A DNA stretch of 64,000 nt. It comes from Lentisphaerota bacterium (GTDB taxonomy: Bacteria > Verrucomicrobiota > Kiritimatiellia > RFP12 > JAAYNR01). The stretch is taken from the NCBI GenBank assembly GCA_016873675.1, contig VGWG01000003.1:3626-67625 (forward strand), read 5' to 3'. The number at the start of each line of letters is the position of its first letter. The first letter of the stretch is position 1. A program made the position numbers and the translations under genes. Positions 11,456 through 26,727 of the stretch are shown here, piece after piece. The notes under the pieces are model-generated. The model saw nothing but the letters and a program-made list of their open reading frames with translations. It ran no database searches and had not been told where the DNA came from.

Positions 11456-12622
11456 TTAATTCCTTTGTCTGCCCGCCGCGAGGATTGCATGATCTTCTGC
11501 CAGCGAGATAAGAGGAAATAGTTCGTTGTACTGCTTCTGGATGAACATCGGGGACTTCCGTCGAAATAGCCGCTCTGCCTGTCGATCTGCGATTCGCAGC
11601 GTAATCTGTTCATGTGCACAAAGGACCGGTGACACCTGGCCCAGAAGTCCGGTTGCCTGTCGATTGAGGCACCCGCAGAAATGATTGCAGCGTTCCCGTA
11701 TGGCGCATGGGAGGCATGCTTCTTTCTCCGTCGTATTTTCCAAATACAGTCTTTGGCGGCGCACTTCATCCACACCGGTTCGTACGTCTCCGATGCACCA
11801 CTCCGAATCCCCGCCGTCGCCCACAAACTGAACACAAGGGAAGATGCGCCCTGACGGCGCGATGGAAATCTGCCTACGCCCAAGTTCGCACCGTTCGTGC
11901 CGACAACTTCCCGGAAAGATGTGTCCGGCAATCTTCACATCAAATGGACTGAAATAGAACTTCTCTTCTCTGAGGGTCTGCGTCTCATACCAATCAGCCA
12001 ATTCGCCGTATTGCCGTTCAAGTTCTTTGAGTGCGCGCCGCGACCATGGTGTGCCATAGTTCAGGGAGCAAATCAGGTACCTGAATCCGCAAGCGAAGAA
12101 AAATCGGACAGATTCAGCGTACCACGACACCGTCTCGGGGGTCGTCACTAACATGACCGGCGCGTACGGTTTATGTGCGAGCAGAAGGTCGATGACCGGG
12201 CGCAGTCTTTCAAAGGTTCCGTTGCCCGACGCATCGATTCGATGAACATCGTGTGCGGCCTGCACCCCATCATGACTAAGCGCCACGAATACACCTGCGG
12301 TCAGGGGATCGGTCAGAAACGTCTTGTCGAGCAGAGCGCCATTTGTCGTTAGTTTGAAATGGAACAACTGGCCGGTCCTTGCTTCGATATCCCGACAGTA
12401 ACATATCGTCTCTCTAACAAGATCAGGACGCAACAACGGCTCGCCACCGAAGAATATAATCCCCAAGCTTTGCCCCTGCGACTGTTGCGCGCTGAGCCGC
12501 AGTGCGAGGTCAACTGCTGCTCGGGCCGTATCGGCCGTCATGGTGCCGCCCAGATGCGGTGCCGCGTAACAATACCGACAACGGAAGTTGCATTCCGACG
12601 TCAGATGGAGTGTGACGTGCAA
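11456..12622 (-). CDS. Radical SAM/SPASM-domain maturase (anaerobic sulfatase-maturating-enzyme-like).
   Basis: CNFRCRYCY (CxxxCxxC) at the N-terminus and C-terminal Cys clusters (CLPCAIRERCNHFCGC) typical of SPASM/twitch. 388 aa. GC is lower than the surroundings. Confidence 0.75.
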   Translation of the reverse strand: MHVTLHLTSECNFRCRYCYAAPHLGGTMTADTARAAVDLALRLSAQQSQGQSLGIIFFGGEPLLRPDLVRETICYCRDIEARTGQLFHFKLTTNGALLDKTFLTDPLTAGVFVALSHDGVQAAHDVHRIDASGNGTFERLRPVIDLLLAHKPYAPVMLVTTPETVSWYAESVRFFFACGFRYLICSLNYGTPWSRRALKELERQYGELADWYETQTLREEKFYFSPFDVKIAGHIFPGSCRHERCELGRRQISIAPSGRIFPCVQFVGDGGDSEWCIGDVRTGVDEVRRQRLYLENTTEKEACLPCAIRERCNHFCGCLNRQATGLLGQVSPVLCAHEQITLRIADRQAERLFRRKSPMFIQKQYNELFPLISLAEDHAILAAGRQRN

Positions 12623-12623
12623 A

Positions 12624-13460
12624 TCAGATGACTCCCTGTCCTTTCAGCCATTTCACAAAATCCTGCACTTGTTCGCGCAGCTCCTTTTCGCCAATGTCCT
12701 TAGCGGCTTTCTGTCTTGCTTCCCAGAAAGAGCGCCGTTCAGTATCGGTTGCCTCTTTCTTTGGATAATCCATATTAGGAGCAGAGGCGGCCGGGTCATA
12801 GAACACGGCCACAATGGTCTTTCCTTTTGTGTGAGTTAATCCATTGGTTAGGACTTGCGCTGTGGTTTTGAAATCGAAACTCGACACCGAGCACATGCGC
12901 GTGTGATCCTTCCTTTCCCAGTCGGCGAAATCCTTCCGGGTTACGACCTGGTAAGCGACGTCGTGCTGTTTGTCGTACCCGTCCAACACAAGGTCACGCT
13001 TTTGCGCGTTCGGCTTCTGTTTTCTCTCTTTCGTATTTTCGTCCCTCTCATCCAAGAACCCGAATTGATCGGTTACCGGAACCATCATATCCTTCAGCGT
13101 GAGCGCGTCTGCGGAAAAATCAATCCCCGCCTTTCTGGCCTCATCCTGGACCACTTGCCGTGCTTCGTCTTCAGAGAGGAATACGGGGGGATTCACGGCG
13201 ACACATCCGAAGCCACCCCGGCCTTCTCCGTGGATGAAAAGTGGCGCGACGCGAGGTGCGTCGACTGCCGCGTTCTTAGAGTCGCCAGCAACGGCCGGTT
13301 TCGATATAATCAGAGGGATGACCATGCTCAACACTCCCAGTACGAGGCGGTGCTGCCGCCAGCGTTCTGGAATCCATTGCAGTAGTTCCGGATGCTCCAT
13401 CAGGTATTGACGTGTCGGATAACATGGAGTTGTATATCGTCGGACTATTCGCATTTTCAT
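12624..13460 (-). CDS. Hypothetical single-TM protein (low-GC island).
   Basis: Start taken at MKMRIV (aaggaaa RBS). The longest ORF runs to 13538. There is one hydrophobic helix (LVLGVLSMVIPLII) and no recognisable domain. GC is about 52% versus about 66% in the flanks. Confidence 0.45.
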   Translation of the reverse strand: MKMRIVRRYTTPCYPTRQYLMEHPELLQWIPERWRQHRLVLGVLSMVIPLIISKPAVAGDSKNAAVDAPRVAPLFIHGEGRGGFGCVAVNPPVFLSEDEARQVVQDEARKAGIDFSADALTLKDMMVPVTDQFGFLDERDENTKERKQKPNAQKRDLVLDGYDKQHDVAYQVVTRKDFADWERKDHTRMCSVSSFDFKTTAQVLTNGLTHTKGKTIVAVFYDPAASAPNMDYPKKEATDTERRSFWEARQKAAKDIGEKELREQVQDFVKWLKGQGVI

Positions 13461-13762
13461 TGTTTTCCTTTCATAGGGCAACTCCTTAAGACGGTTGAGG
13501 GTCTTGCCTCCCGCGCAAAGCTGCGCCGACACAGGCACACATCATTTTCCAACATACGCCCTTTATTGTCTGCGCAGCGACATGCCGCACCCAAAACGAA
13601 TACTGCAAGTATGGCACGTTCCAGCGAACTTGTATAGCCCTCAAAAAATCCGATTCGGCGGTGCACTTGGTTTTACGCATTACACTGGAATCCTAGAAGG
13701 TTTTACGCTATCATCATCTGCGTCTTCGCGTTGCGCCTGTACTGAATGTGCGCCCATTTGCC

Positions 13763-15205
13763 ATGAACCATACCGTCATCGCCTGGCTCATTCCCGGCAC
13801 GGCCGCGCTGCTCGGCGCGGCCGTTCTGGCGGGCTGGCTTGCGTTTGATCCGGCGACCGATCTGGTCGTGCATGTTCCCGGCATGGATGGCGAACCCGTT
13901 CAGGCTGGCCCGACGGCGTCCGGGGCCACGGTTCGCATCGGCGATCACTTCCGGGCTGGCGATGGCACCGCCGCCGATCTCCCCGGTTCGTGGCCGGGAT
14001 TCCGCGGGGCCCGCACTGACAACCGGTGCGCCGATCCGGTGGCGCTGGCCGACCGCTGGGAGACCAACCAGCCGCCGATCCTGTGGCAGGTACAACTGGG
14101 CGAGGGCCACGCTGGCGCGGCCATCCATCGCGGCCGCGTCTATGTGCTGGATTATGACGAGACCGCGCGGCGTGATCTCTTGCGCTGCCTCTCTCTCGCG
14201 GACGGACGTGAACTCTGGCAGCGGGGGTATCCGGTGGAGGTTCCGCGCAACCACGGCTTTTCGCGTACCGTCCCGGCCGTAACCGACCGCCACGTCGTGA
14301 CGCTCGGCCCCCGCTGCCATGTCATGTGCGTGGATGCCGTCACCGGCGACCTGCGGTGGGGGCTGGACCTGGTCGCGACGTTCGGCTCCAAAGTCCCCAT
14401 GTGGCATGCCGGCCAATGTCCGCTGATTGTTGACGACACGGCCATCCTCGCGCCAGCCGGTCCCGAGACGCTGATGATGGGCGTGGATTGCGCGACGGGG
14501 CAGATCCGCTGGAAAACCCCCAACCCGGACGGTCTGGAGATGTCGCACGCCTCGATCATGCCTGCGGTAATCGGCGGCGAGCGCATGGTTGTCTATGCCG
14601 CGCTGGGCGGGATGGTCGGGGTCAGCGTCGAAGCTGGGCGGGAGGGCACGCTGCTGTGGTTTACACGGGACTGGGACCGCTCGGTAATCGCCCCCTCCCC
14701 GGTCATCCTGGAAGACGGCCGAATCTTCGTCACGGCGGGCTACGGCGGCGGCGGCATGATGCTCCAGGTGACGCGCGAGGGCGAGACGTTCCGCGTCGCC
14801 ACGCTGCAGACCTTCAAGGCCAACCAGGGATTCGCCTCGGAGCAGCAAACCCCCGTTCAGATTGACGGACACCTGTTCGGGGTGCTGCCCAACGATGCGG
14901 GGCCGCTGCGCAATCAGCTCGTCTGCGTCAGCCCCGATGACGCGCGAACCTTCGTCTGGACGAGCGGACGCGATCGCCGGTTCGGCCTCGGCCCCTACCT
15001 CGCCGCCGATGGCAAGCTCTACGTGCTCGCCGATGACGGAATGCTCACCATGCTGCGCGCGACGGCCGAGGGCTACCACGAGCTGGGGCGGAAACACATT
15101 CTGACCGGTCACGACGCCTGGGGCCCCCTGGCGCTGGCCGGCGGGTTGCTGGTCTTGCGCGATTCCACCCGCATGGTGTGCGTGGATTTGCGCGGAGGGC
15201 ACTAA
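13763..15205 (+). CDS. Secreted PQQ-like beta-propeller repeat protein.
   Basis: N-terminal signal/TM (MNHTVIAWLIPGTAALLGAAVLAG). It has repeated G-x-V/L-Y...D-G...W motifs of PQQ/BamB-like 8-blade propellers. Confidence 0.7.
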   Translation: MNHTVIAWLIPGTAALLGAAVLAGWLAFDPATDLVVHVPGMDGEPVQAGPTASGATVRIGDHFRAGDGTAADLPGSWPGFRGARTDNRCADPVALADRWETNQPPILWQVQLGEGHAGAAIHRGRVYVLDYDETARRDLLRCLSLADGRELWQRGYPVEVPRNHGFSRTVPAVTDRHVVTLGPRCHVMCVDAVTGDLRWGLDLVATFGSKVPMWHAGQCPLIVDDTAILAPAGPETLMMGVDCATGQIRWKTPNPDGLEMSHASIMPAVIGGERMVVYAALGGMVGVSVEAGREGTLLWFTRDWDRSVIAPSPVILEDGRIFVTAGYGGGGMMLQVTREGETFRVATLQTFKANQGFASEQQTPVQIDGHLFGVLPNDAGPLRNQLVCVSPDDARTFVWTSGRDRRFGLGPYLAADGKLYVLADDGMLTMLRATAEGYHELGRKHILTGHDAWGPLALAGGLLVLRDSTRMVCVDLRGGH

Positions 15206-16191
15206 TGCACAAGGGAACGACGCTTCTTTTTCTGGCTGGCGTACTGGCGTGTGCGGGCATCGTGGCCAAGCGGGGCTGCGCGACAGTCCCGCGGGCTGGT
15301 GACCGGATGATCGAAGCCAAAATATCCGCCTACGACGCACAGATTGCCTCCTTGGCCGTGATCGACCCAGCCCTGATCCTCTACCGTGAGGCCCGTCCGC
15401 TGGTGCCTCCCGGACTCACGGTTCTGCGCGCGATCGCGGTGGGTCCCGACGACCGGATCTATGCCGGCGGCGGGAGCAATCTGGTCGTCCTGTCAGCACA
15501 GGGAGAAACCATCCGGAGCCAAACGTTCGACGGCGACATCTCCTGTCTGGCCGTGGACGCGAAGGGCCGAATGTATGTCGGACTCGGCACTGCCGTTCGC
15601 GCCTTTGACGCGGAGGGCCGCCCGACCGCAACCTTCGCCGGTATCGGATCGGATGCGATCATCACGTCCCTGGCGGCCGCCGACGACGATGTGTTTGTGG
15701 CAGATGCCCGGAGCCTGACCGTGCTGCGCTACGCGCCCGACGGCGTTCTCAAGAACACGATCACCGGTCGGCACGGTCACCCGGAGGAGCGCGGTTTCAT
15801 TGTGCCGAGCCCCAGCTTCGACCTCATGCTCGGTCAGGGGGAAACCCTGTGGATCGTCAATCCCGGCCGACACCGGCTGGAGGACTACGCCTTTACCGGC
15901 GAGCGAATCGCCGTCTGGCCGGAGCGCCCCGGGATGGGAATTGAGAATTTCTCCGGCTGCTGCAACCCGGCCCATGTCGCCCGCCTCGCCGACGGCTCGG
16001 TCGTGACCAGCGAGAAGGGGCTCTCCCGTGTGAAGGTGTACGCGAAGCGCGGCGGCTTCACGGGCGTGGTCGCCGCCCCGGACCACTTCGACAGCGCCGC
16101 CGCAGGCTTGGACCTGACCGTGGATTCCAACGACCGGATTTTGGTGTGTGACACCGACCGCCTGCAGATCCGCGTGTTTGAGCTGAAATAA
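15205..16191 (+). CDS. NHL-repeat / six-bladed beta-propeller lipoprotein.
   Basis: TAATG overlap with the previous gene. Lipobox FLAGVLAC. Repeated …DG.IYVAD/…RI.V.D blades. Confidence 0.6.
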   Translation: MHKGTTLLFLAGVLACAGIVAKRGCATVPRAGDRMIEAKISAYDAQIASLAVIDPALILYREARPLVPPGLTVLRAIAVGPDDRIYAGGGSNLVVLSAQGETIRSQTFDGDISCLAVDAKGRMYVGLGTAVRAFDAEGRPTATFAGIGSDAIITSLAAADDDVFVADARSLTVLRYAPDGVLKNTITGRHGHPEERGFIVPSPSFDLMLGQGETLWIVNPGRHRLEDYAFTGERIAVWPERPGMGIENFSGCCNPAHVARLADGSVVTSEKGLSRVKVYAKRGGFTGVVAAPDHFDSAAAGLDLTVDSNDRILVCDTDRLQIRVFELK

Positions 16192-16203
16192 GGGGGGAAC
16201 GCC

Positions 16204-16437
16204 ATGACCACCATCAACGAGACCCGAAGTCGCCGCGAATTCATCCGATTCTGCGGCCGTTTGGCTGTGCTGGGCGGCGCCGCGTACTACGCCTCGCGGC
16301 TGTTCCTCCGCGGCCAAGTTTCTTTGCCCGGACAATCCTGCGAGAACCAGGGGATCTGCTCATCCTGTCGCGCCTACTCCCGCTGCGGCCTGCCGCAGGC
16401 GTTGTCCCGGCGCCGGGCACAGGGGGGCCGCTCATGA
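16204..16437 (+). CDS. Small (77 aa) twin-arginine-signal Cys-rich protein.
   Basis: SRREFIRF followed by a hydrophobic stretch (Tat-like), then CENQGICSSCRAYSRCGLP. There is a strong RBS (aagggggga), and the ATGA overlap couples it to the next gene. Confidence 0.5.
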   Translation: MTTINETRSRREFIRFCGRLAVLGGAAYYASRLFLRGQVSLPGQSCENQGICSSCRAYSRCGLPQALSRRRAQGGRS

Positions 16438-17024
16438 CAACACCCCAAAAAACCGACGCGCTGGCGGCTGGCGTCACCCGCAGACAGTTCATTAAGAACG
16501 GGCTGTGGGGACTGGCCGTGGCCGCCGTCGGCGCCGCCACCGGCCTGTCTGCATCGCGCAGCAGCCGATCATCGCGCGTCTGGCAGATCGATCCCACCCT
16601 GTGCGTGCAGTGCGGCCGATGCGAGACCGCGTGCGTGCTGACGCCGTCAGCCGTCAAGGCGGTTCATGCCTACGCCCTCTGCGGCTATTGCAAGCTGTGC
16701 GGCGGCTACCATCAGCCGCAGGCGCAACGGATTGACACGGCCGCCGAGAACCAGCTCTGCCCGGCGGGCGCGCTTATACGCACGTTCGTCGAGGATCCGT
16801 TCTACGAATACACGATCAACGAGGAGCGCTGCATCGGCTGCGCGGTCTGCGTGAAAGGCTGCAGCCAGTTTGGCAACGGCTCACTCTTCCTGCAAGTGCG
16901 GCACGACCGCTGCGTGAACTGCAACGACTGCGCCATCGCGCGCGCCTGCCCCGCAGGCGCGTTCCGGCGCGTGCCAGCCGACCAACCCTATCTTGTGAAG
17001 GGAGCGCCGGATGCGCACGTTTAA
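16434..17024 (+). CDS. Tat-exported NapG/MauM-like ferredoxin (4x[4Fe-4S]).
   Basis: It has a TRRQFIKNGLWGLAVAAVGAA Tat signal and four Cys clusters: CVQCGRCETAC, CGYCKLCGG...CPAG, CIGCAVCVKGC and CVNCNDCAIARACPAG. Confidence 0.8.
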   Translation: MTTPQKTDALAAGVTRRQFIKNGLWGLAVAAVGAATGLSASRSSRSSRVWQIDPTLCVQCGRCETACVLTPSAVKAVHAYALCGYCKLCGGYHQPQAQRIDTAAENQLCPAGALIRTFVEDPFYEYTINEERCIGCAVCVKGCSQFGNGSLFLQVRHDRCVNCNDCAIARACPAGAFRRVPADQPYLVKGAPDAHV

Positions 17025-18282
17025 AGCTCTGTGGATGGGCGTGGGCGTCTGGGTGACAGCGCTGACGCTCCGGGCGGCGGATCGTTTTCCGCGGCCAGAT
17101 TTCAAAACGGACTATGTGTCGCCCGACCTCCTCCTGCCCGGCGCCAGAGGGCCGCTACTGGAGTGGCTGGACGTCGCGGTTCTGGCTGCGGCTCTGGCGC
17201 TGGCGGGCTGGCTCGCCATCCGGAATCGGTCGCGGCGGGGGTTGGTGCTGCTCACCCTCTTCAGCCTGGGTTATTTCGGCTTCTGGCGACGCGGCTGTGT
17301 CTGCGCCGTCGGCGCCGTGCAAAATCTGGCGCTGGGGTGGGCCGATGCCAGTTGCGCGATTCCGCTGACGGTCATCGCGTTTTTTGTTCTGCCGTTGCTG
17401 GCGACGCTGCTCGTCGGCCGCGTGTTCTGCGCGTCGGTCTGTCCTCTGGGCGCGATCCAGGAACTGGCGTTGTGGCGGCCGATCAAGACGCCCATCTGGC
17501 TGAATCACACGCTTGGCCTTCTGCCCTGGGGGTATCTGAGCGTCGCCGTGCTGTTTGCCGCGACGGGCGCGGGTTTCCTGATTTGCGAATGGGATCCCTT
17601 TGTGGGCTTCTTCCGGCTGGGCGCGCCGTTCCATCTGGCGGTCACGGGCGCGCTGTTTCTTCTGGCGAGCCTGTTCATCGGCCGCCCCTACTGCCGGTTT
17701 GCGTGTCCGTACGGCGCGATCCTTGGGCTACTGTCCCGCGTCTCGCGGCGGCACACGACGATCACCCCGGACGCCTGCGTGCAATGCCGCCTCTGCGAGG
17801 ACGCGTGTCCCTACGGCGCCATCCGCAGTCCGCTGCCCGCCGCCGCGCCCGAGTCGCGCGCGACGGGCGTTCGGCGGCTGGCGCTGATTCTGGCGGCCGT
17901 ACCGCTCATCGCCGTCGCCGCCGCGGCAACGGGATATTTTTTCGGCAATCTGCTGTCGCGGGCGCATCCCCGCGTGGCGCTGGCGCTGGAGATTCATCGG
18001 GATGCGGCGCAGCCCATGAGCCTGGAGCGGGAGGCCTTCTTCACATCGGGCCGTGCGACCGTGGCGCTCGACGCCGAGGCGCGCGCGATTCAGAGGCGAT
18101 TTGCTGTGGGTGGCGTCTTTCTCGGCGCGCTGCTGGCGCTCACGGTTGGGGCTCAACTGATCGGACTGGCGCTCTGGCGGTCGCGAACCGACTACGAGCC
18201 GGACCGGGCGCGCTGCTTCAGTTGCGGCCGTTGCTTCGCGTATTGCCCGGTCGGTAGAAAGCGAAAGGAGTCGCCGAAATGA
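17011..18282 (+). CDS. NapH/MauN/NosR-family membrane polyferredoxin.
   Basis: Several TM helices with CxxC motifs, C-terminal CRFACPYGA and CVQCRLCEDACPYGA (2x[4Fe-4S]), and an additional CFSCGRCFAYCP motif. Confidence 0.8.
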   Translation: MRTFKALWMGVGVWVTALTLRAADRFPRPDFKTDYVSPDLLLPGARGPLLEWLDVAVLAAALALAGWLAIRNRSRRGLVLLTLFSLGYFGFWRRGCVCAVGAVQNLALGWADASCAIPLTVIAFFVLPLLATLLVGRVFCASVCPLGAIQELALWRPIKTPIWLNHTLGLLPWGYLSVAVLFAATGAGFLICEWDPFVGFFRLGAPFHLAVTGALFLLASLFIGRPYCRFACPYGAILGLLSRVSRRHTTITPDACVQCRLCEDACPYGAIRSPLPAAAPESRATGVRRLALILAAVPLIAVAAAATGYFFGNLLSRAHPRVALALEIHRDAAQPMSLEREAFFTSGRATVALDAEARAIQRRFAVGGVFLGALLALTVGAQLIGLALWRSRTDYEPDRARCFSCGRCFAYCPVGRKRKESPK

Positions 18283-20015
18283 CGCCCCCACTTTCTCCAG
18301 CGGAATCGCTGCGCGTGGTCATCGGCCGCCGGCTGGCGGCGGTCTCCGCCGTGTTCATCATCATCGTTTCGCTGTTGATGGCGACGAACCGGTATCTGCT
18401 CAATACCATTGATCCGCTCGATACGCCCGCGCTGAAGACGTTATCCGAAAAGCTGGAGCGGGATGGGGAGAATGCCGAGCTCCGGCAACAGGTGCGCGAA
18501 TTGGACTGGCTGGCCCGCCGGGCGTTCTTCGTGCGACAATGGCAGCTTGAGACCGGCGCCAGCCTGCTGGGCGTTGCGGGTGTCGTGTTCCTGTTGTCAT
18601 TACAGCTCATGGCATCGGGACGCCGCCCCACCCCCACCCCGCAACCCGCTTCCGGCAGGGATAATCGCTTTTGGCGGTCCGCCGCGCGCGCCCGGCGGGT
18701 CATCGCGATTAGCGGGGCGCTGATCCTGCTGGCGGCCTGGGGGCTACACCTCCGGATCGGTGGACAGTCACGGACACCCAATCCCATGCCGACGGCACCG
18801 CAGCCGGGACACTCTCCCGCGACGAATCCCCCCCTCGCTCCTGAAACCCTGATCGAACCGCTCGCAGGCGCTGGCGAGTGGCCCTTCTTCCGCGGACCCG
18901 GCGGCCTGGGCATCGCTCGCGAGGCCGATCCCCCCATCGCCTGGGACGGCGCAACCGGCACCGGCGTACTCTGGAAAACGGAGGTGCCGCGGGGCGGATT
19001 CAACTCGCCCGTGGTGTGGGGCAACCGCGTTTACCTGGCTGGCGCCGATGAACAGACGCGCGAAGTGTACGGGTACGACGCCGACACCGGCGTTCGGTTG
19101 TGGACGGCCGACACCGAGGGCGTCCCCGGAGCACCCGCCACGCCGCCAGAGGTCACCTCGGACACCGGTTATGCCGCGCCGTCGCTGGCCACTGACGGCC
19201 GGCGGGTGATTGCGATCTTCGGCACGGGCGTCATCCTTGGCCTCGACGCCGAGGGCCGCCGCCTCTGGGCGCGCCATCTGGGCACGCCCGGCAATCCCTA
19301 CGGACACGCCTCATCCCTGCTGATTCTGCGCAATCTGGTCTTCGTCCAATTCGACCATACCGGCGGCTCATCGGTCAAGGCGCTGGATGTGGAGACTGGA
19401 CAGGACCGCTGGGAACAGTCGCGGGAGGGCGCGATCTCCTGGGCGTCGCCCATCCTCACGGACGCGGACGGACGCCTGCGGCTGATCCTCTCGGCGGCGC
19501 CGATGGTGGCCGCCTATGACGCCCTGACAGGGGCTGAACTCTGGATGCAGGATGTGCTTAGCAACGAGATCGGCGCGTCTCCCGCCTATGCGAACGGCCG
19601 CGTGTTCGCCGCCAACCGGTACGCCCAGGCCGTCGCGCTCGACGTCGCCTCGGGCGACGTGATCTGGTCGTCCACCGATCTGGATTTGCCCGACGCCGGA
19701 AGCCCCGTCGCCGACGGCAACCACCTCTTCATGCCCACGAGCGACGGGACGTTTTCCTGCATCGCTGCGGCGGATGGTTCGCGGATCTGGCGCCACGAGT
19801 TTGACACGGGCGGCTACGGCTCGCCAATCCTCGCCGCAGGCCGCATCTACTGGATCACCGCCGATGGTCGGACGCGCATCTTCAAGGCCGCCGAAACCTT
19901 TGAATTGATCGCTGAACCGGACCTCGGAGAAGCCAGTGTCTGCACCCCGGCCGCCGTCGGTCGCCGCCTCTATATCCGGGGCGTCAAACACCTGTTCTGC
20001 ATCGGACCGAAATGA
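18279..20015 (+). CDS. Membrane-anchored PQQ-like beta-propeller repeat protein.
   Basis: N-terminal TM (VSAVFIIIVSLLMA) and a Pro-rich linker, followed by PQQ/BamB-like repeats (VYGYDADTGVRLW, VKALDVETGQDRW, ...). Confidence 0.7.
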   Translation: MTPPLSPAESLRVVIGRRLAAVSAVFIIIVSLLMATNRYLLNTIDPLDTPALKTLSEKLERDGENAELRQQVRELDWLARRAFFVRQWQLETGASLLGVAGVVFLLSLQLMASGRRPTPTPQPASGRDNRFWRSAARARRVIAISGALILLAAWGLHLRIGGQSRTPNPMPTAPQPGHSPATNPPLAPETLIEPLAGAGEWPFFRGPGGLGIAREADPPIAWDGATGTGVLWKTEVPRGGFNSPVVWGNRVYLAGADEQTREVYGYDADTGVRLWTADTEGVPGAPATPPEVTSDTGYAAPSLATDGRRVIAIFGTGVILGLDAEGRRLWARHLGTPGNPYGHASSLLILRNLVFVQFDHTGGSSVKALDVETGQDRWEQSREGAISWASPILTDADGRLRLILSAAPMVAAYDALTGAELWMQDVLSNEIGASPAYANGRVFAANRYAQAVALDVASGDVIWSSTDLDLPDAGSPVADGNHLFMPTSDGTFSCIAAADGSRIWRHEFDTGGYGSPILAAGRIYWITADGRTRIFKAAETFELIAEPDLGEASVCTPAAVGRRLYIRGVKHLFCIGPK

Positions 20016-20037
20016 AACCCCGCGAAGGCAACTGCCT

Positions 20038-22446
20038 GTGAGCACCCCGAATATCCAACTGGCTGATCCGGTCCGCGCCGAAGATCTCGACCGAATCCTC
20101 GACGAAACCGGACGCAACAGCGCGGCGGTCATTGCTGTGCTGCAGGGGATTCAGGCGCGGTATCGCTATCTGCCCGAGGCGGCCCTGCGCTACGTCTGCG
20201 ACCATTCCGAAATCACGCCGGCCGCCATCGTCGGCGTCTCGACCTTCTACACGCAGTTTCGACACACGCCCGCAGGCAGGCACACAGTCAGCGTCTGCGT
20301 GGGAACGGCCTGCCACGTCAAGGGTGCCAGTGGCATTCTGGCGGCGCTGCGTCGCCATTTGAAGCTCGCCGATGGTGCCGACACCGACGCCGACCGCCGC
20401 TTCACCCTGCGCGAGGTCAATTGCCTCGGTTGCTGCACGCTGGCCCCTGTGGTGCAGGTGGACAGCGTGATCTATGGCTACGCGACTCCCGAGACCGTGG
20501 GCAACATCCTGCAGGATTTTCTCAACCGGGGAGGCGGACAGGACTCGCGCGGCGCCTCCTCCGATCCGTCGCCAGGTCCGTCAGTCGGCGACATCCGCGT
20601 CGGCATGGGCTCCTGTTGCGTGGCCAGCGGCGCTTCGGAGATCGAAGCCGCGCTACATGACCGCGTGTCGGCGCTGCGCCTCCCCGTGCGCATTCAGCGG
20701 GTCGGCTGTCTCGGCCTCTGCTACGAGGAGCCGGTGATCGAAGTGGCGGCGCACGGGCGCCCGTCGCGCCTGTACACGCGGGTGAAGCCGGAAGATATCC
20801 CCGCGATCTTAACCGCGCATTTTCCCCCGCCCAGCCGCTGGACCCGTCTCCGTCACGCCGCCGGACACTGGGTCGAACAGCTCTACACCGACGCGGCTTG
20901 GACGGGCGCGCATTGCGCTGGCATGGACGCGCGCGACCCCCAGATCGCGCCCTATCTCGACCCTCAAGTGCCGATCGCCACCGAGGGCTGCGGCCAGCTC
21001 GATCCGCTCAGTCTCTCCGATTATTGCGGCGCGCACGGGTTCGAAGGATTCCAAGCGGCGCTGCGGCTGCGCCCTGAGGACGTGGTGCGCCAGATCGCCG
21101 ACAGCGGCCTGCGCGGCCGGGGTGGCGGCGGCTATCCGACCGGCCGCAAATGGGGCGAGGTCGCGCGCGAGGTGAACGACGTCAAGTATGTGGTCTGCAA
21201 TGGCGACGAGGGCGACCCGGGCGCGTTCATGGACCGCATGCTACTCGAATCGTTTCCCTACCGCATAATCGAGGGGATGCTGATCGCCGGATACGCAGTC
21301 GGAGCGACACAGGGCGTGCTCTACATCCGCGCCGAATATCCGCTGGCGATCCGGCGCGTCAGCGCGGCACTCGACGCCTGCCGCGCCGCCGGCTGGCTGG
21401 GACCCCACATCCTCGGCAGCGACTTTTCATTCGAACTCACGATCATGACGGGGGCAGGCGCGTTCGTCTGCGGCGAAGAGACCGCACTTATCGCCTCGAT
21501 TGAGGGCAAGCGCGGCATGCCCCGCATGCGGCCGCCCTATCCGTCTCAATGCGGTCTGCACGGCCGCCCCACGCTGGTGAACAACACCGAGACCTTCGCC
21601 CTGATTTCGTGGATCCTGCGCCACGGGCCCGCCGCATTCGCCGCCATCGGCTCCGCGCGCAGCAGAGGCACCAAGGTATTTGCGCTGGCCGGCAAGGTGC
21701 GGCGGGGAGGCCTGATCGAAGTACCCATGGGGATGACGATCCGCCGGGTGATCGACGACATCGGCGGCGGCATCGCCGACGGGCGCCGCCTGAAGGCGGT
21801 GCAGATTGGCGGGCCTTCCGGCGGATGTATTCCCGAACGGCTTGCCGATACGCCCATCGACTACGAGGCGCTGGTCGAGGCGGGCGCCATGATGGGCTCG
21901 GGCGGGCTGGTGGCGCTCGATGACGCAGATTGCATGGTGGAGATCGCCCGCTTCTTTCTCGCCTTCACCCAGCATGAGTCGTGCGGGAAATGCACCTTCT
22001 GCAGGATCGGCACCACCCGCATGCTGGACATACTCGAACGGCTGTGCGGCGGCACGGGCAAACCCTCCGATCTCGATGAGCTCGAGCGTTTGGCGTCCGT
22101 GGTCAAACGCGGCAGCCTCTGCGGTCTGGGAAAGTCCGCGCCTAACCCGGTGCTCACCACGCTGCGCTATTTTCGGGAAGAATACGAGGCGCACGCCGGA
22201 GGCGTATGCCCGGCGGGCCAATGCAAGGCACTGATCTCCTACCAGATCACCGACGACTGCATCGGCTGCACCCGCTGCGCGCAACAGTGTCCGGTCGGCG
22301 CCATCCCGCCGACCCCGTATGAACGGCACGCGATCAACCCCGAAACATGCGTGCGCTGCGACGGCTGCAGGACGGCCTGCCCGGCCGGGGCCGTCGTGGT
22401 GATGTCCGGAAACAGGATTGTGAAACATGGTTACGCTAAACATTGA
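20038..22446 (+). CDS. Fused NuoE-like [2Fe-2S] + NuoF-like (FMN, NADH-binding, [4Fe-4S]) flavoprotein with C-terminal 2x[4Fe-4S] ferredoxin. It is of the HydB/HoxF/FdhB type.
   Basis: It carries CVGTACHVKGA…CLGCC (NuoE), GRGGGGYPTGRKWG, CNGDEGDPGAF and ESCGKCTFCRIGT (NuoF). The C-terminus has CIGCTRCAQQCP and CVRCDGCRTACP. A GTG start at 20038 avoids overlap; the track ORF begins at 19936. Confidence 0.85.
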   Translation: MSTPNIQLADPVRAEDLDRILDETGRNSAAVIAVLQGIQARYRYLPEAALRYVCDHSEITPAAIVGVSTFYTQFRHTPAGRHTVSVCVGTACHVKGASGILAALRRHLKLADGADTDADRRFTLREVNCLGCCTLAPVVQVDSVIYGYATPETVGNILQDFLNRGGGQDSRGASSDPSPGPSVGDIRVGMGSCCVASGASEIEAALHDRVSALRLPVRIQRVGCLGLCYEEPVIEVAAHGRPSRLYTRVKPEDIPAILTAHFPPPSRWTRLRHAAGHWVEQLYTDAAWTGAHCAGMDARDPQIAPYLDPQVPIATEGCGQLDPLSLSDYCGAHGFEGFQAALRLRPEDVVRQIADSGLRGRGGGGYPTGRKWGEVAREVNDVKYVVCNGDEGDPGAFMDRMLLESFPYRIIEGMLIAGYAVGATQGVLYIRAEYPLAIRRVSAALDACRAAGWLGPHILGSDFSFELTIMTGAGAFVCGEETALIASIEGKRGMPRMRPPYPSQCGLHGRPTLVNNTETFALISWILRHGPAAFAAIGSARSRGTKVFALAGKVRRGGLIEVPMGMTIRRVIDDIGGGIADGRRLKAVQIGGPSGGCIPERLADTPIDYEALVEAGAMMGSGGLVALDDADCMVEIARFFLAFTQHESCGKCTFCRIGTTRMLDILERLCGGTGKPSDLDELERLASVVKRGSLCGLGKSAPNPVLTTLRYFREEYEAHAGGVCPAGQCKALISYQITDDCIGCTRCAQQCPVGAIPPTPYERHAINPETCVRCDGCRTACPAGAVVVMSGNRIVKHGYAKH

Positions 22447-23992
22447 CCGGCGCCCGGTGGACGTGCCTGCTGGAACAACCCTGCTGGTCGCGGCCCGCAG
22501 GCTCGGCATCGCCATCCCAACGCTCTGCTTTCGCGATGGCCTGGAGCACGTCACCTCCTGCATGCTCTGCGTGGTCGAGGACGTCCGGACGGGTTGCCTG
22601 CATCCCGCGTGCTCCACCCCGGTTCAGGACGGCATGGACATCGCGACCGCCAGCGGGACGGTACTGGAGGCGCGCCGCACGGCTCTGGAACTGCTGCTGG
22701 GGGATCATCTCGGCGATTGCGAAGGCCCCTGCGCGCGCGCCTGTGCGGCGGGTATGAACATCCCCGCCATGCTGCGCGCGATCCGCGACGGCGATTTGCG
22801 CGAGGCGATTCGCGTCGTCAAGCGGCACATCGCGCTCCCCGCAGCGCTGGGACGGATCTGCCCGGCGCCCTGCGAAAAGGCGTGCCGCCGCGGCACGCAC
22901 GACGCGCCGGTCGCAATCTGCAGGCTCAAGCGTTTCGTGGCCGACGCCGACCTCGCCTCGCCGGACCCGTATCTTCCCGAGCGCCTGGAATCGAGCGGCT
23001 TCCGGGTGGCCGTGGTCGGCGCCGGCCCGGCCGGGCTCTCCGCCGCCTGCGCGCTCGCGCGCGACGGACACGCATGCACCGTGTTTGAAAAAGGCGACAG
23101 GCCCGGCGGAGGCTTGCGCGCGCCGGAGCTGAGTGACACACTGCCGTCGGCCGTGCTCAACGCCGAAATCGCGCAAATCGCCCGCCTCGGCATGACCTTT
23201 GAGACCGGCGTGGAGATCGGCGTCACCTGCTCGCTTCACGACCTCAAACAGCGTTTTGACGCAATCATTCTGGCGTGGGGTGCCAGCGCATCCAGCCTCC
23301 TGGACCCCCTCGGACTCGAAAGTGGTCCGCACGGGATCACAGCAAACTGGAGAACCCACCGCACCGGCGACCCCGTGATCTTTGCGTGCGGCAACGCGGT
23401 GGTGCCTGGCCGACTGGCCGTGCGGGCGGTTGCGCAGGGACAGGCCGCCGCCCTCGCGGTCGGCCAGATGCTGCGCGGCGAGGCGGTCGTCGGAACGCGG
23501 CACCGCTACAATCACCGGCTCAGCGCTGCCCTGACGCCGGACGAGCTCGCGGCTTTCATGACCGGAACTGCGCCGGGGCCACGCACGGAGCCTGCGGATC
23601 ACGCGACGGGCGGCTACTCAACGGACGAGGCACCCGGAGAGGCGGCGCGGTGCCTCCACTGCGATTGCCGCAAACCCGAGGCCTGCCAATTGCGCCGCTA
23701 TGCCGACGACTACGGGGTGAATCCGCGCGGCTGGAAACCGGCCCATCGGCGTCCGGTCGAGATCGTGCGACACGGCAACACCGTCTACGAACCGGGAAAA
23801 TGCATCGCCTGCGGCATCTGCGTGCGCATCGCCAACGCCGCCCGGGAACCGCTGGGCCTAACCTTCATTGGCCGAGGCTTTACCGTGCGGATCGGGGTTC
23901 CCTTCCATGAGTCATTGGAGAAGGGATTGAGCCAAGTCGCCGCCGCCTGCGTTGAAGCCTGCCCCACCGGCGCGCTGGCCCATGACCGGTGA
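22427..23992 (+). CDS. [2Fe-2S] ferredoxin domain fused to a GltD-like NAD(P)H-dependent FAD oxidoreductase (glutamate synthase small-subunit family).
   Basis: The N-terminus has a NuoG-like 2Fe-2S (CFRDGLEHVTSCMLCVV). CPAPCEKACRRG is GltD Fe-S motif. VAVVGAGPAGLSAACALA is a Rossmann FAD/NAD motif. There is a C-terminal Cys cluster. Confidence 0.8.
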   Translation: MVTLNIDRRPVDVPAGTTLLVAARRLGIAIPTLCFRDGLEHVTSCMLCVVEDVRTGCLHPACSTPVQDGMDIATASGTVLEARRTALELLLGDHLGDCEGPCARACAAGMNIPAMLRAIRDGDLREAIRVVKRHIALPAALGRICPAPCEKACRRGTHDAPVAICRLKRFVADADLASPDPYLPERLESSGFRVAVVGAGPAGLSAACALARDGHACTVFEKGDRPGGGLRAPELSDTLPSAVLNAEIAQIARLGMTFETGVEIGVTCSLHDLKQRFDAIILAWGASASSLLDPLGLESGPHGITANWRTHRTGDPVIFACGNAVVPGRLAVRAVAQGQAAALAVGQMLRGEAVVGTRHRYNHRLSAALTPDELAAFMTGTAPGPRTEPADHATGGYSTDEAPGEAARCLHCDCRKPEACQLRRYADDYGVNPRGWKPAHRRPVEIVRHGNTVYEPGKCIACGICVRIANAAREPLGLTFIGRGFTVRIGVPFHESLEKGLSQVAAACVEACPTGALAHDR

Positions 23993-24348
23993 GTCAGGGC
24001 GGCCACATGGCCGTGTTGCGTTTCGCAAGCAATCCAACCAGCAGGAAGAGTCTAATCACCACTGGCCCCAGGGCAAAACGATCACGCTGGCCGAGCCTAT
24101 TCCTTCACCAGGCTAGTGGCTGCCGGTGGAGGGATCCTCTAACGGAGCTTCCGGTTCTGGAGGCGATGGGCAATGTCAAGACACGGTAATGGGGCGGTCG
24201 TTCTTGCTTGACGCATCCTTTCCGGTTCTGCTAACGTCTCACTTCCAAACGTGCGCTTTCAGCCCGGTTCACAGCGGGCGCGTGATCACGCCGTATGAGA
24301 AGCGATTGCGTATCACGGAGTGGACCACGGAATAAACGGAGAGAAGCC

Positions 24349-26727
24349 GTGTACTTTAAGAAACTCCATCATCCGGGCAATTTTGTGTTCGCTGACTCGT
24401 TCACCGCTGGCCGGTTGGGCGCAGGGAAAACGAAACTTCGGGCGAATGTGCAGGACTTTGGCGGCAACATTTTCCGGTTGCAGGTTTCCGACACGCGTTG
24501 GGGCACCAATTTGAGCCAGGCGGAGCTTGCGCCGGAAAAGGCCGTCGCCGTACCGGCCTCCGGCGCATGCAAGGCGGCTTTTTCCAAGGCCGCGCGCTTC
24601 ACGTTGTCGGATGCTGATGGCGCCGAGGTTCTTGTCGGCCTGGAGTCGGGTTCATTCGGCATTTGCGGCCAGGCCTGGATGATGCAATTCGAGTATGACG
24701 ATGTCCTTCGGTTCTATGGCTTTGGCGAGAAAGTATCGCCTGATCTGGAAAAGACCGGCCTGCGGACCAAGTTCTGGAACACCGATGTCATGAGCGATTT
24801 TGCGTGGGAGGATCTCCAACGCGCGAGGACCGATCCGCCTTATGTCTCCATCCCGTACCTGGCCATCCGGACGGCGCGAGGGTGGGTCGGCATACTCGTC
24901 AACAATCCCTTTGCCGTATTTGCCTGCGCAGGCGGTTCATTCGAGGAAAGCATTTCAACGGCTGGAACCACAAGGCCGAGACGATTCTATCTGGGCTCCG
25001 ACGACGGCATGCCGGAAGTCTGGTTTCTAACCGCCGGGTCGCTGGCCGAATTGACCCGCCGCTACCAGTTCCTGGTCGGAACGACACCCCTGCCGCCACT
25101 CTGGGCTTTGGGGCATCATCAATGCCGCTGGGGCTACGAAAGCGCGCAAGATCTTGCCTATATTAAAAAGCAGATGGCGCTGCATGATATTCCGAACAGC
25201 GGATTGTGGCTGGATATTGACTACATGGACGGGTACCGCGTCTTTTCGTGGAACAGCACCCACTTCCCCGATCCCGTCAAGGATCTCGCCGCGCTTCAGG
25301 CCGATGGCCAGCGCGTGGTGCCGATCCTGGACCCCGGCGTGAAAGACGAAACTGGCTATGGCGTGGCCGAGCGCGGACGGAAAGCTGACGCCTTGTGCCT
25401 GACCCCGGAAGGGACCCCTTACCAGGGCTTTGTGTGGCCCGGAACGACGCTTTTTCCCGATTTTTCAACGCATGCAGGGCGCAACTGGTGGGCCCGCGAG
25501 GTGCGGAAGTTTGCAGCAAACGGACTGGACGGTGCCTGGCTCGACATGAACGATCCCTCCGTGGGCGCGGCCGAGCTCGACCCGATGCGGTTCGACAAAG
25601 GCCAACTGCCCCACGCGGCGTTTCACAACCAGTACGCCACAGGCATGGCAAAGGCCTCGCGCGAAGGCTTCCTGGCGGCCCATCCGGATCGACGCCCCTT
25701 CTTGCTGTGTCGCTCGGGGTTTATCGGTTCACAACGCTATACCGCGCTCTGGACTGGCGACAACATGTCCAACGATGCCTACCTGACGGCGTCGATCCCC
25801 TGCGTGCTCAACCTGGCGCTATCCGGCGTGCCGATGTGCGGGCCTGACGTGCCCGGCTTTGTGGGCGCGGCAGACGAATGGCTGGCCCTGCGCTGGTACC
25901 AGCTCGGGTTCCTGTTCCCGGTGTTGCGCAATCATTGCTGCAAGAGCGATCGTGCGCAAGAGCCCTGGACCTTCACGAAACCGGTTCGCGAGATGATCGC
26001 CCACCTCATCCGCCTGCGCTACCGCCTGATGCCGTACCTGTACAATCTCTGGATAAACCAGGAACAAACGGGCGACGCGGTCTGGCGTCCTCTTTTTTAT
26101 GATTTTAAGGACTCCAGCGACATGCCGCTCGACCGCATTAACGACCAGTTTATGGTGGGGCCTGCCCTCATGCAGGCACCCCTCACCCACAGCAACCCAC
26201 ACGCCTGTTCACGCGATGTGATCCTGCCAGCGGGCGACTGGTACGACTTGCGCACCGGCGAATGGCTGACAGGCCCGGCCCGAGTCCGCGTCGAAATGGG
26301 GCAGTTCCAGACGCTGATGTACGCGCGTGGCGGCGCGCTGGTGCCGATGCTGCCGGAAGCGCCGACGACTCACCGCATCGCGATGGACCAGATTGACATG
26401 CACTGCTTCCTGCGGGACGGGCAAAGCGCCACATTCTGTTACGGTGCCGACGACGGCGAATCGTTCGCGTACACGAAGGGTGTTCGCAGTACGATAACCC
26501 TCACGGCACGCATGCAGGGAACAACGCTCTACGCCGACACTTCGGGGGCAACCGCTGCCTGGAAGCCGCTGAAGATCCGCTTCGTGGTTTATGCGCCCGT
26601 GGAACGGCTGATCGTCAACGGACGAAACGAGAAACTCGGACCCTTTACCTGGCGCGTCACGGGCAAGGAACTGCCTTGTTTGCGCAGCCTGCGGGCCGTG
26701 GGTTCAGGGACACGCACACCCGGCTGA
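24349..26727 (+). CDS. Glycoside hydrolase family 31 (alpha-glucosidase/alpha-xylosidase-like).
   Basis: WALGHHQCRWGY, LWLDIDYMDGYRVF, WPGTTLFPDF and GAWLDMNDP are GH31 catalytic-region motifs. A GTG start at 24349 has a ggagag RBS. The track ORF begins at 24295. Confidence 0.8.
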   Translation: MYFKKLHHPGNFVFADSFTAGRLGAGKTKLRANVQDFGGNIFRLQVSDTRWGTNLSQAELAPEKAVAVPASGACKAAFSKAARFTLSDADGAEVLVGLESGSFGICGQAWMMQFEYDDVLRFYGFGEKVSPDLEKTGLRTKFWNTDVMSDFAWEDLQRARTDPPYVSIPYLAIRTARGWVGILVNNPFAVFACAGGSFEESISTAGTTRPRRFYLGSDDGMPEVWFLTAGSLAELTRRYQFLVGTTPLPPLWALGHHQCRWGYESAQDLAYIKKQMALHDIPNSGLWLDIDYMDGYRVFSWNSTHFPDPVKDLAALQADGQRVVPILDPGVKDETGYGVAERGRKADALCLTPEGTPYQGFVWPGTTLFPDFSTHAGRNWWAREVRKFAANGLDGAWLDMNDPSVGAAELDPMRFDKGQLPHAAFHNQYATGMAKASREGFLAAHPDRRPFLLCRSGFIGSQRYTALWTGDNMSNDAYLTASIPCVLNLALSGVPMCGPDVPGFVGAADEWLALRWYQLGFLFPVLRNHCCKSDRAQEPWTFTKPVREMIAHLIRLRYRLMPYLYNLWINQEQTGDAVWRPLFYDFKDSSDMPLDRINDQFMVGPALMQAPLTHSNPHACSRDVILPAGDWYDLRTGEWLTGPARVRVEMGQFQTLMYARGGALVPMLPEAPTTHRIAMDQIDMHCFLRDGQSATFCYGADDGESFAYTKGVRSTITLTARMQGTTLYADTSGATAAWKPLKIRFVVYAPVERLIVNGRNEKLGPFTWRVTGKELPCLRSLRAVGSGTRTPG

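Follow-up and report, generated by a model that had tools for sequence, protein, structure and literature searches.

An eight-gene cluster that may wire a Bfu-type flavoprotein to the periplasm through iron-sulfur proteins

A 64,000-nucleotide stretch of DNA from a Lentisphaerota bacterium (assembly GCA_016873675.1, contig VGWG01000003.1, positions 3,626 to 67,625; hereafter the window) contains eight co-directional open reading frames, all on the plus strand and within positions 13763-23992, which we call g1 to g8. They form one conserved, operon-like unit that joins a NuoEF-type flavoprotein, a NapH-type membrane protein, iron-sulfur (Fe-S) proteins exported by the twin-arginine translocation (Tat) pathway, and β-propellers, as a first-pass annotation of the sequence had proposed. 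We lean slightly towards the view that the eight genes encode a single membrane-bound complex that would wire a Bfu-type flavoprotein to the periplasm through Fe-S clusters alone. The parts are of known kinds, these being the Bfu family, NapH-type proteins, HycB/WorS-type ferredoxins, and BamB-like and NHL propellers, but their assembly matches no known system. The cluster had been put forward as undescribed, and neither a published account of it nor a characterized complex with its gene order was found in the open-access full-text literature; papers on the Marinifilaceae and on deep-sea electron transfer do not mention it.

Fermentative bacteria of the Fibrobacterota-Chlorobiota-Bacteroidota (FCB) and Planctomycetota-Verrucomicrobiota-Chlamydiota (PVC) groups dominate polysaccharide breakdown in anoxic sediments, digesters, and comparable habitats, and the ways in which they get rid of NADH and reduced ferredoxin are only partly understood. 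If our reading is correct, the cluster would represent a new branch in the energy metabolism of these groups, with electrons exported without heme or a molybdo-enzyme, and the first Bfu-family enzyme whose partner reaction takes place outside the cytoplasm.

Gene order and distribution

The eight genes follow one another with overlapping or nearly overlapping starts and stops. The stop of g1 and the start of g2 share the sequence TAATG (TAA at 15203-15205, ATG at 15205-15207), g3 and g4 have a common ATGA at 16434-16437, and g5 and g6 have another at 18279-18282, with g6 translationally coupled to g5. These three junctions are as first annotated, but that between g4 and g5, also given there as an ATGA, is a 14-nucleotide overlap (ATG at 17011, stop at 17022-17024). 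The overlap between g7 and g8 is 20 nucleotides long (ATG at 22427, stop at 22444-22446). Short gaps separate the remaining genes: g2 stops at 16191 and g3 begins 12 nucleotides further on, at ATG 16204, after a GGGGGG run, while g6 stops at 20015, leaving 22 nucleotides before g7 if GTG 20038 is its start. That start, which corresponds to the gene call of 802 amino acids in a closely related locus (L001), is most likely the correct one, rather than 19936.

Relatives of g5 were sought in one genome per species and were present in at least 597 species genomes; neighborhood counts refer to the best 80 loci of these genomes, and gene order was assessed in the 52 loci with enough flanking sequence. 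In 46 of the 52, spread over many phyla, g1-g2-g4-g5-g6-g7-g8 are colinear over about 10.4 kilobases, far more than chance would allow. The same order is found on two complete-genome-scale contigs and on one contig labeled Gemmatimonadetes. With group labels taken from record titles, the best 80 loci fall into Bacteroidota (53), Planctomycetota (12), Lentisphaerae-like bacteria (3), Kiritimatiellae, Calditrichota, and KSB1 (2 each), and Aminicenantes and Poribacteria (1 each), and 4 have doubtful labels. Co-occurrence across phyla, which the first-pass annotation had proposed to examine, is seen, and the overlapping codons together with this colinearity support a single complex. The carriers are bacteria of sediment and gut types. 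Marinifilum fragile JCM 15579, Labilibaculum sp. K2S, and Ancylomarina sp. DW003 are among those in culture, which makes the complex open to direct testing. Two contigs of metagenome-assembled genomes titled 'Akkermansia' (L007 and L008) carry the whole cluster, with a g5 that is 85% identical to that of the window; these titles are probably taxonomic mislabels.

Domains were called with Pfam and NCBIfam, and membership in a family was judged by the curated NCBIfam cut-offs; the earlier domain calls were confirmed by these profiles. None of the eight proteins contains a hydrogenase, formate dehydrogenase, or molybdopterin/molybdo-enzyme domain in either database, and the lack of such a catalytic subunit, already remarked on from the window, holds across phyla. 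The c-type heme motif CxxCH is likewise absent from all eight proteins.

The cytoplasmic pair and its membrane partner

The gene g7 (20038-22446) encodes an 802-amino acid fusion of BfuC to BfuB. It had been described as a NuoE-NuoF fusion with extra ferredoxin domains, and the corresponding Pfam domains (2Fe-2S_thioredx, Complex1_51K, SLBB, NADH_4Fe-4S, and Fer4) were all found. From the N-terminus, g7 is made up of a NuoE-like [2Fe-2S] domain, a thioredoxin-like domain with four Cys, the NuoF site for flavin mononucleotide (FMN) and NADH, the NuoF [4Fe-4S] cluster, and a C-terminal 2x[4Fe-4S] ferredoxin; in an 836-amino acid reading of the gene, 2Fe-2S_thioredx covers residues 52-194. The best solved relatives are the NfnB chain 9n5u_B (687 bits), 9bov_B (681 bits), and 8oh5_B (653 bits), with HydB chains scoring lower. 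Across 59 orthologues, at least 95% conservation is seen for the FMN loop RGGGGYPTGRKW, the NADH loop GAGAFVCGEETAL, C683/686/689/729, C775-785, and C805-815, and likewise for all cluster Cys, while C121, C126, C163, and C167 of the NuoE-like domain are invariant. The core of bifurcating BfuBC enzymes is defined by a [B1-FMN-C1] 'flavobicluster' and the B3 and B4 clusters (PMC11829005). As judged from its sequence, g7 has each of these elements: the NADH/FMN site, the B1 [4Fe-4S] cluster, and the C-terminal B3 and B4 clusters of a BfuB, and the NuoE-like part with [2Fe-2S] cluster C1 of a BfuC, here fused to it.

The second cytoplasmic protein, g8 (22427-23992), is a 521-amino acid BfuA-type subunit that alignment to solved chains relates to NfnA and StnC. 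Its parts are an N-terminal [2Fe-2S] cluster, a His-ligated cluster, two GltD-type clusters, a Rossmann motif of the type that binds flavin adenine dinucleotide (FAD), and C-terminal clusters. The best solved relatives, 9bov_A (1178 amino acids), 8oh5_C (1172 amino acids), and 9n5u_A, are far longer. Residues 2-295 of g8 align to chain residues 4-296, and the alignment restarts near residue 296 of g8 at about chain residue 445. The roughly 150 chain residues skipped are what we take, from established architecture, to be the NADPH-binding Rossmann domain of GltD/NfnB-type proteins. A single GxGxxG motif is present in g8, at 198-203, and the protein ends after the next clusters, lacking the pterin-like C-terminal domain of about 500 residues. 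The NADPH-domain deletion is shared by all 55 aligned orthologues, and in a Bacteroidales subclade of five loci the FAD domain is wholly deleted as well, leaving proteins of 362-367 amino acids that keep the Fe-S parts (L027:15379-16464, L062:15301-16401, L069:15361-16455, L075:15301-16401, and L076:15301-16401).

The first-pass annotation had taken g8 for a GltD-like FAD/NAD(P) oxidoreductase, a description that does not survive these deletions. Because the NADPH domain is lost in all orthologues and the FAD domain in one subclade, g8 is best read as an Fe-S wire, a chain of clusters left from an Nfn-type ancestor, and not as an NAD(P)H oxidoreductase. It follows from the loss of the NADPH domain that g7 and g8 do not form a transhydrogenase. 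As for the NAD(P)H input that had been proposed, NADH at the NuoF-like FMN of g7 stands, but entry of NAD(P)H at two sites does not. By analogy with solved relatives, electrons would enter from NADH at this FMN and probably also from ferredoxin at the C-terminal clusters.

The described enzymes closest to this pair are the Nfn-Bfu/Stn group, which includes NfnABC of Caldicellulosiruptor saccharolyticus and Thermococcus sibiricus and StnABC of Sporomusa ovata. With NfnB/StnB, g7 shares the thioredoxin-like domain, the FMN/NADH site with its adjacent [4Fe-4S] cluster, and the C-terminal two-cluster domain, and the NuoE-like [2Fe-2S] cluster is also present; g8 is closest to NfnA/StnC over the N-terminal clusters, the GltD-type clusters, the FAD motif, and the clusters that follow. 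In contrast to that group, BfuC and BfuB are fused here, and g8 is not a BfuA with both FAD- and NADPH-binding domains, having neither the NADPH domain nor the pterin-like domain. The third substrate of described Bfu enzymes appears to be replaced by a membrane and periplasmic module, one found in none of those enzymes. The missing NADPH domain of g8 would thus serve as a natural experiment in the exchange of this substrate within the Bfu family. Schut et al. 2022 listed 17 BfuB clades without an assigned function, and the membrane-bound Bfu enzymes that they predicted all have complex I or Mbh modules (PMC9304861). The present cluster is like the predicted Nuo-Bfu and Mbh-Bfu enzymes in that a Bfu core is attached to a membrane module. 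It differs in that a NapH-type Fe-S protein, together with propellers and Fe-S proteins of the periplasm, stands in place of a proton-pumping module that works with quinone or H+.

The membrane partner is g5 (17011-18282), a 423-amino acid NapH-type Fe-S protein that Fer4_5 matches twice. Its motifs are two CX3CP (Fer4_5) units and two CxxCxxCxxxCP motifs. Among 28 homologues (46-74% identity to the window protein), 15 Cys are invariant, namely C96, C98, C140, C144, C192, C228, C232, C256/259/262/266, and C402/405/408/412. From hydropathy and the positive-inside rule we predict a signal peptide followed by about seven helices, and on the same grounds both CX3CP units and both ferredoxin motifs would face the cytoplasm, with an extra helical hairpin splitting the 2x[4Fe-4S] domain. 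Identical copies of the protein are on record from Lake Tanganyika-type metagenomes of the Joint Genome Institute.

NapGH has been described as a quinol dehydrogenase in which the NapH clusters are cytoplasmic and the NapG clusters periplasmic (PMC5449189). The first-pass annotation had called g4 and g5 a NapGH-like pair, which is right as to design but not as to family. The NapH/MauN model TIGR02163 matches g5 over residues 121-268 only, at 56.4 bits against a cut-off of 213, and the NapH equivalog NF007013 gives 53 bits against 234. The MauM/NapG model TIGR00397 gives g4 22 bits against 178.85, although its Tat signal and 16 Cys fit the design. As in NapGH, NosGH, and MauMN, and in the fused NapH-NapG polyferredoxin of strain MLMS-1, a polytopic CX3CP protein with cytoplasmic [4Fe-4S] motifs is encoded alongside a Tat-exported periplasmic protein with four [4Fe-4S] motifs. 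Unlike these, g5 has a signal peptide, about seven helices where NapH has four, a split ferredoxin domain, and extra invariant Cys. The cluster is also linked to a cytoplasmic NADH flavoprotein and not solely to the quinone pool, and it has no nap, nos, or mau partner genes, with napA, nosZ, and mauA/B absent from both the window block and the 80 related loci. How NapH-type proteins move electrons across the membrane has been a question since NapGH and NosR, and the present cluster would offer a clean system in which to address it.

NapH-like proteins have also been proposed as modular transmembrane electron carriers, some of which pair with the periplasmic propeller enzymes ExaA and NirS (PMC8238504). 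The present cluster resembles the flavinylated NapH-like systems of Meheust et al. 2021 in having a modular NapH-type carrier that would serve a periplasmic enzyme, which in those systems is sometimes a β-propeller. It differs from them in that the carrier is an Fe-S protein and not a flavoprotein, and the propellers are neither ExaA nor NirS. No match to FMN_bind or ApbE was found in the eight proteins, nor is either a recurrent neighbor, so g5 does not belong to the flavinylated type.

Exported iron-sulfur proteins and tethered propellers

Two small Fe-S proteins appear to be exported next to g5. The first, g4 (16434-17024), is a 196-amino acid ferredoxin with four Cys motifs, whose Tat signal scores 18.9 bits with the TAT_signal model (cut-off 16.7). 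R16, R17, and 16 Cys are invariant in 77 orthologues, and the protein most likely carries four [4Fe-4S] clusters. Its best solved relative is not a NapG but chain 9mqx_E (E value 3.4e-9) of entry 9MQX, the WorABCSL structure. By our assignment this chain is most likely WorS, the 4x[4Fe-4S] 'nanowire' subunit of a Bfu enzyme, which places g4 with the WorS/HycB-like type.

The second, g3 (16204-16437), is a mini-protein of 77 amino acids that has no Pfam or NCBIfam match. It had been described as a Cys-rich protein with a Tat signal, and this description is borne out: a twin-arginine motif (SRREFI) is followed by a weakly hydrophobic segment, the pattern C46-x5-C52-x2-C55-x5-C61, and LPQA. The hydrophobic segment falls under the transmembrane threshold, as Tat signals would. 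The four Cys and one Arg of the twin-arginine motif are at least 95% conserved in 29 orthologues, and the pattern, including C-x5-C-x2-C-x5-C-x-LP(E/Q)A, recurs in the g2-g4 interval of at least 51 of 73 loci. The spacing is near that of the [4Fe-4S] loop of endonuclease III (C-x6-C-x2-C-x5-C), and together with Tat targeting it suggests a small Fe-S protein.

A similar cast is known from the methylamine dehydrogenase cluster, in which mauB encodes a propeller, mauA a small Cys-rich Tat subunit, and mauM and mauN the NapG-like and NapH-like proteins. However, g3 has only about 35 mature residues with four Cys and no conserved Trp, and therefore no cofactor of the tryptophan tryptophylquinone (TTQ) type. 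The cluster also lacks MauG, amicyanin, and MauE/D genes and has a cytoplasmic Bfu module that the mau cluster does not. A role for g3 as a TTQ- or cysteine tryptophylquinone-type cofactor peptide was rejected, as no aromatic residue is conserved.

The remaining three proteins are propellers, and all three are predicted to be tethered to the membrane. The most conserved periplasmic component is g1 (13763-15205), with about 55% identity across phyla. It is a 480-amino acid, eight-bladed propeller (Pfam PQQ_2, 64 bits) with one N-terminal membrane helix, so that the earlier call of a PQQ-like propeller stands but that of a freely secreted protein does not. Its invariant or nearly invariant residues are R162, N163, H164, S167, R168, T169, Q218, C219, M260, S261, H262, and S264, together with E360-T363, R406, D451, W453, R466, and D467. 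Predicted strand positions would place these in loops leading into the innermost strand of successive blades, on the top face, which is the one used by propeller enzymes for ligand binding. Secreted and lipoprotein paralogues of g1 in other genomes lack its invariant residues. Arrays of one to five such paralogues, of about 410 amino acids each and with a WRGPNRDG motif, lie just 5' of g1 in Bacteroidales, Calditrichota, and a metagenome-assembled genome labeled Gemmatimonadetes (L019:132-6544, L082:4098-6673, L016:5432-6697, and L087:7469-10004); none occurs in the window.

The second propeller, g2 (15205-16191), has 328 amino acids, six NHL blades (Pfam NHL, E value 1.5e-7), and an N-terminal anchor, and its AlphaFold2 model has a mean predicted local distance difference test score of 91.4. 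Its description as an NHL-repeat lipoprotein is correct as to the repeats, but a lipobox is present in only 6 of 49 homologues, these being the window and its closest relatives, and most others have a plain N-terminal membrane anchor. A loop with vicinal Cys, F249-x-G251-C252-C253-N254-P255, is invariant, as are E226, T268, E270, R275, K277, D316, and R323, with D167 nearly so. From predicted strand positions, the invariant polar and vicinal-Cys residues would again lie on top-face loops. The nearest folds are the NHL domains of TRIM proteins, PknD, PAL, NHLRC2, and SOQ1.

The third, g6 (18279-20015), has 578 amino acids. Three membrane helices at its N-terminus precede a propeller of the PQQ_2 type (130.8 bits) in the periplasm. 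Conservation falls mostly on the structural Trp and Gly of the repeat, and R73, D76, and R80, nearer the N-terminus, are conserved as well.

The first-pass annotation had suggested pyrroloquinoline quinone (PQQ) as a propeller cofactor, and this did not hold up. Scores fall far under the PQQ-dehydrogenase cut-offs (480 and 832 bits for TIGR03075 and TIGR03074): g6 reaches 46.5 bits with the PQQ alcohol dehydrogenase model and 18.9 with the second, and g1 matches neither. The nearest folds are BamB and NHL binding domains, and PQQ chemistry in the propellers is unlikely. Nor are g1 and g6 BamB proteins. Against a cut-off of 285.2 bits for TIGR03300 they score 18.3 and 80.9, respectively, and they have a BamB-like fold on inner-membrane helix anchors where BamB is a lipoprotein of about 390 amino acids. 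It had been allowed that the propellers might be structural proteins with no conserved candidate active-site residues; g1 and g2 do hold invariant polar, His/Cys/Met, and vicinal-Cys residues that may serve as such sites. Several conserved Cys of g1 and g6 recur at the same strand position and are probably structural.

Electron path, alternatives, and surroundings

In the single complex that we favor, NADH would enter at the g7 FMN and ferredoxin would probably dock, as it does in solved Bfu enzymes, at the C-terminal clusters of g7, and the g8 cluster chain would take the place of the lost NADPH site and with it of the usual third substrate; both the intact entry sites and the loss are read from sequence. 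From g8, electrons may pass to the cytoplasmic clusters of g5 and across the membrane, from the CX3CP sites to predicted periplasmic residues Cys96, Cys98, and Cys192. They could then move to the Tat-exported four-cluster g4 and the small four-Cys g3. In the last and least secure step, the tethered propellers might use the electrons, pass them on, or serve as a docking scaffold, with candidate end sites in the funnel of invariant residues in g1 (Arg/His/Cys/Met/His/Glu) and in the g2 loop that carries the vicinal Cys. Flow would most likely be outward, making the complex a sink for NADH and probably for reduced ferredoxin in fermentative FCB/PVC bacteria, and a periplasmic acceptor would replace NADP+ or H+ as the third Bfu substrate.

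A more specific form of this proposal is put forward only tentatively. It is possible that the Bfu core works with an extracytoplasmic third substrate through an all-Fe-S wire free of heme and flavinylation, with NADH and ferredoxin co-oxidized or co-reduced and the partner reaction taking place at a hitherto unrecognized catalytic site on the tethered propellers, made up of the His/Cys/Met/His funnel of g1 and the vicinal-Cys loop of g2. Such a complex would count as a novel kind of respiratory or electron-sink enzyme, one widespread among anaerobic Bacteroidota, Planctomycetota, Kiritimatiellae, and related phyla.

Several points weigh against a single complex of this kind. The periplasmic position of C96, C98, and C192 in g5 is predicted from hydropathy only, no solved homologue covering the membrane part of g5 was found, and g5 may have a quinone site. 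The nearest propeller folds (BamB and TRIM-NHL) are non-catalytic, and the propellers matched no cofactor-binding family. Bifurcation or confurcation by the complex would be expected from its membership in the family only. Finally, a g1 orthologue with 53% identity occurs alone, with no adjoining g2-g8, on a contig labeled Cloacimonetes (L088:9209-10645).

Of the alternatives, coupling to quinone survives best, though we consider it rather unlikely. Here g5 and g4 would act as a NapGH-like menaquinol dehydrogenase or menaquinone reductase, and the route to the periplasm would not be direct. In detail, g7 and g8 would reduce menaquinone via g5 as a non-pumping NADH/ferredoxin:quinone oxidoreductase, like the predicted Nuo-Bfu, and menaquinol might, independently or additionally, feed g4 and the periplasmic proteins. 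The description of NapGH as a quinol dehydrogenase (PMC5449189), the NapH core kept in residues 121-268 of g5, and the prediction by Schut et al. that quinones are a possible third Bfu substrate (PMC9304861) all speak for this. However, g5 falls short of the NapH cut-off by a wide margin (56 bits versus 213) and has extra helices and Cys outside the NapH match, and a single path is favored by the strict linkage, within one operon, of the periplasmic genes to the cytoplasmic ones.

Somewhat less probable again is a thiol or sulfur reductase, which would be a special case of the single complex that we favor. The periplasmic end would reduce a disulfide, persulfide, polysulfide, or thiosulfate-type S-S bond at a site where a small [4Fe-4S] protein lies beside the vicinal Cys of g2 and Cys219 of g1, in a manner analogous to ferredoxin:thioredoxin reductase or heterodisulfide reductase. 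Cys252-Cys253 of g2 is invariant, and a low-potential donor would suit the reduction of thiosulfate or polysulfide. The case is one of resemblance, however, and the cluster has no linked gene for a rhodanese, Psr/Phs, DsbD, or a thioredoxin; the probably structural role of several conserved Cys in g1 and g6 also counts against it.

Inward flow is unlikely. A propeller would oxidize a low-potential periplasmic substrate and deliver electrons through g3, g4, g5, and g8 to the Bfu core, which would bifurcate them to NAD+ and ferredoxin and so build membrane potential, like the loop of a periplasmic hydrogenase or formate dehydrogenase. This is the direction in which solved Bfu enzymes work when NADPH, H2, or aldehydes are the third substrate, and a role in gathering electrons from ExaA and similar periplasmic oxidases has been proposed for NapH-like proteins (PMC8238504). 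Against this, none of the 80 loci contains a known low-potential oxidase (hydrogenase, formate dehydrogenase, carbon monoxide dehydrogenase, or WOR), and the propellers fail the PQQ-dehydrogenase models. The substrates of PQQ-type propellers have potentials too high for reduction of NAD+, which also counts against inward flow.

It is very improbable that the block is a mosaic of independent functions that are merely syntenic, with a transhydrogenase of the soluble Nfn type, envelope-assembly propellers resembling BamB, and a NapGH-like pair. Each part does resemble a known free-standing system, and g1 stands alone in L088. But g8 cannot bind NADPH, hence g7 and g8 are no transhydrogenase, BamB models score far under their cut-off, and the genes keep their order in many phyla and overlap at their stop and start codons. 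The lost NADPH site and the synteny make this the weakest explanation.

A divergent spacer of 224 nucleotides (13539-13762), which is AT-richer, lies 5' of g1 and is the presumed promoter region; GC content is 0.55 at 12001-14000 versus 0.67 inside the operon. No sigma-70 consensus was found in this spacer and no sigma-70-like site inside the block, and no Rfam family, riboswitch or other RNA, matched upstream of or inside the block at E values up to 1. Seven bases 3' of the g8 stop, the scan for terminator-like sites found a GC-rich hairpin on the plus strand (23999-24014) with a weak T-tract. As a candidate transcript end it is only suggestive, since the number of such sites in the region equals chance (6 observed, 6.3 expected).

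In other phyla the cluster is accompanied by a companion block (L051:16-6625, L061:28-6576, L073:3-6487, L016:16922-21281, L059:17278-21185, and about 30 other loci). It encodes a BamB-like propeller of about 375 amino acids, a GT4 glycosyltransferase whose N-terminal part has the motif GSGxxFYCxNCxRD, a LolD-like ABC ATPase, and an FtsX/MacB permease that is duplicated. The block lies 5' of g1 in Planctomycetota, whereas Bacteroidales, Calditrichota, KSB1, and Kiritimatiellae have it 3' of g8, and it is absent from the 64-kilobase window. The lone g1 of L088 comes after glycosyltransferase and methyltransferase genes.

The flanks within the window hold housekeeping genes and glycoside hydrolases and are uninformative. 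Upstream, and divergent from the operon, a radical SAM/SPASM gene (11456-12622, minus strand) is closest to PapB-type ranthipeptide maturases (196 bits versus a cut-off of 340) and stands beside a gene for a 304-amino acid protein without a family match (12624-13538, minus strand). This pair is kept only in the closest relatives (L001 and L002), and the adjacent small open reading frame holds no obvious precursor peptide. A role for the radical SAM gene as a maturase of PQQ or another quinone cofactor was rejected, given its score below cut-off and its restriction to close relatives. Downstream, a gap of 300 nucleotides separates g8 from a GH31 α-glucosidase/xylosidase-like gene (24295-26727, plus strand), an adjacency that is not conserved elsewhere. 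Further away on the minus strand are a B12-binding radical SAM protein (5909-7351), beside a 321-amino acid open reading frame without a family match, and two proteins of 1109 and 1521 amino acids (26873-30202 and 31890-36455), each with one FGE-sulfatase (SUMF1-like) domain as its sole Pfam match.

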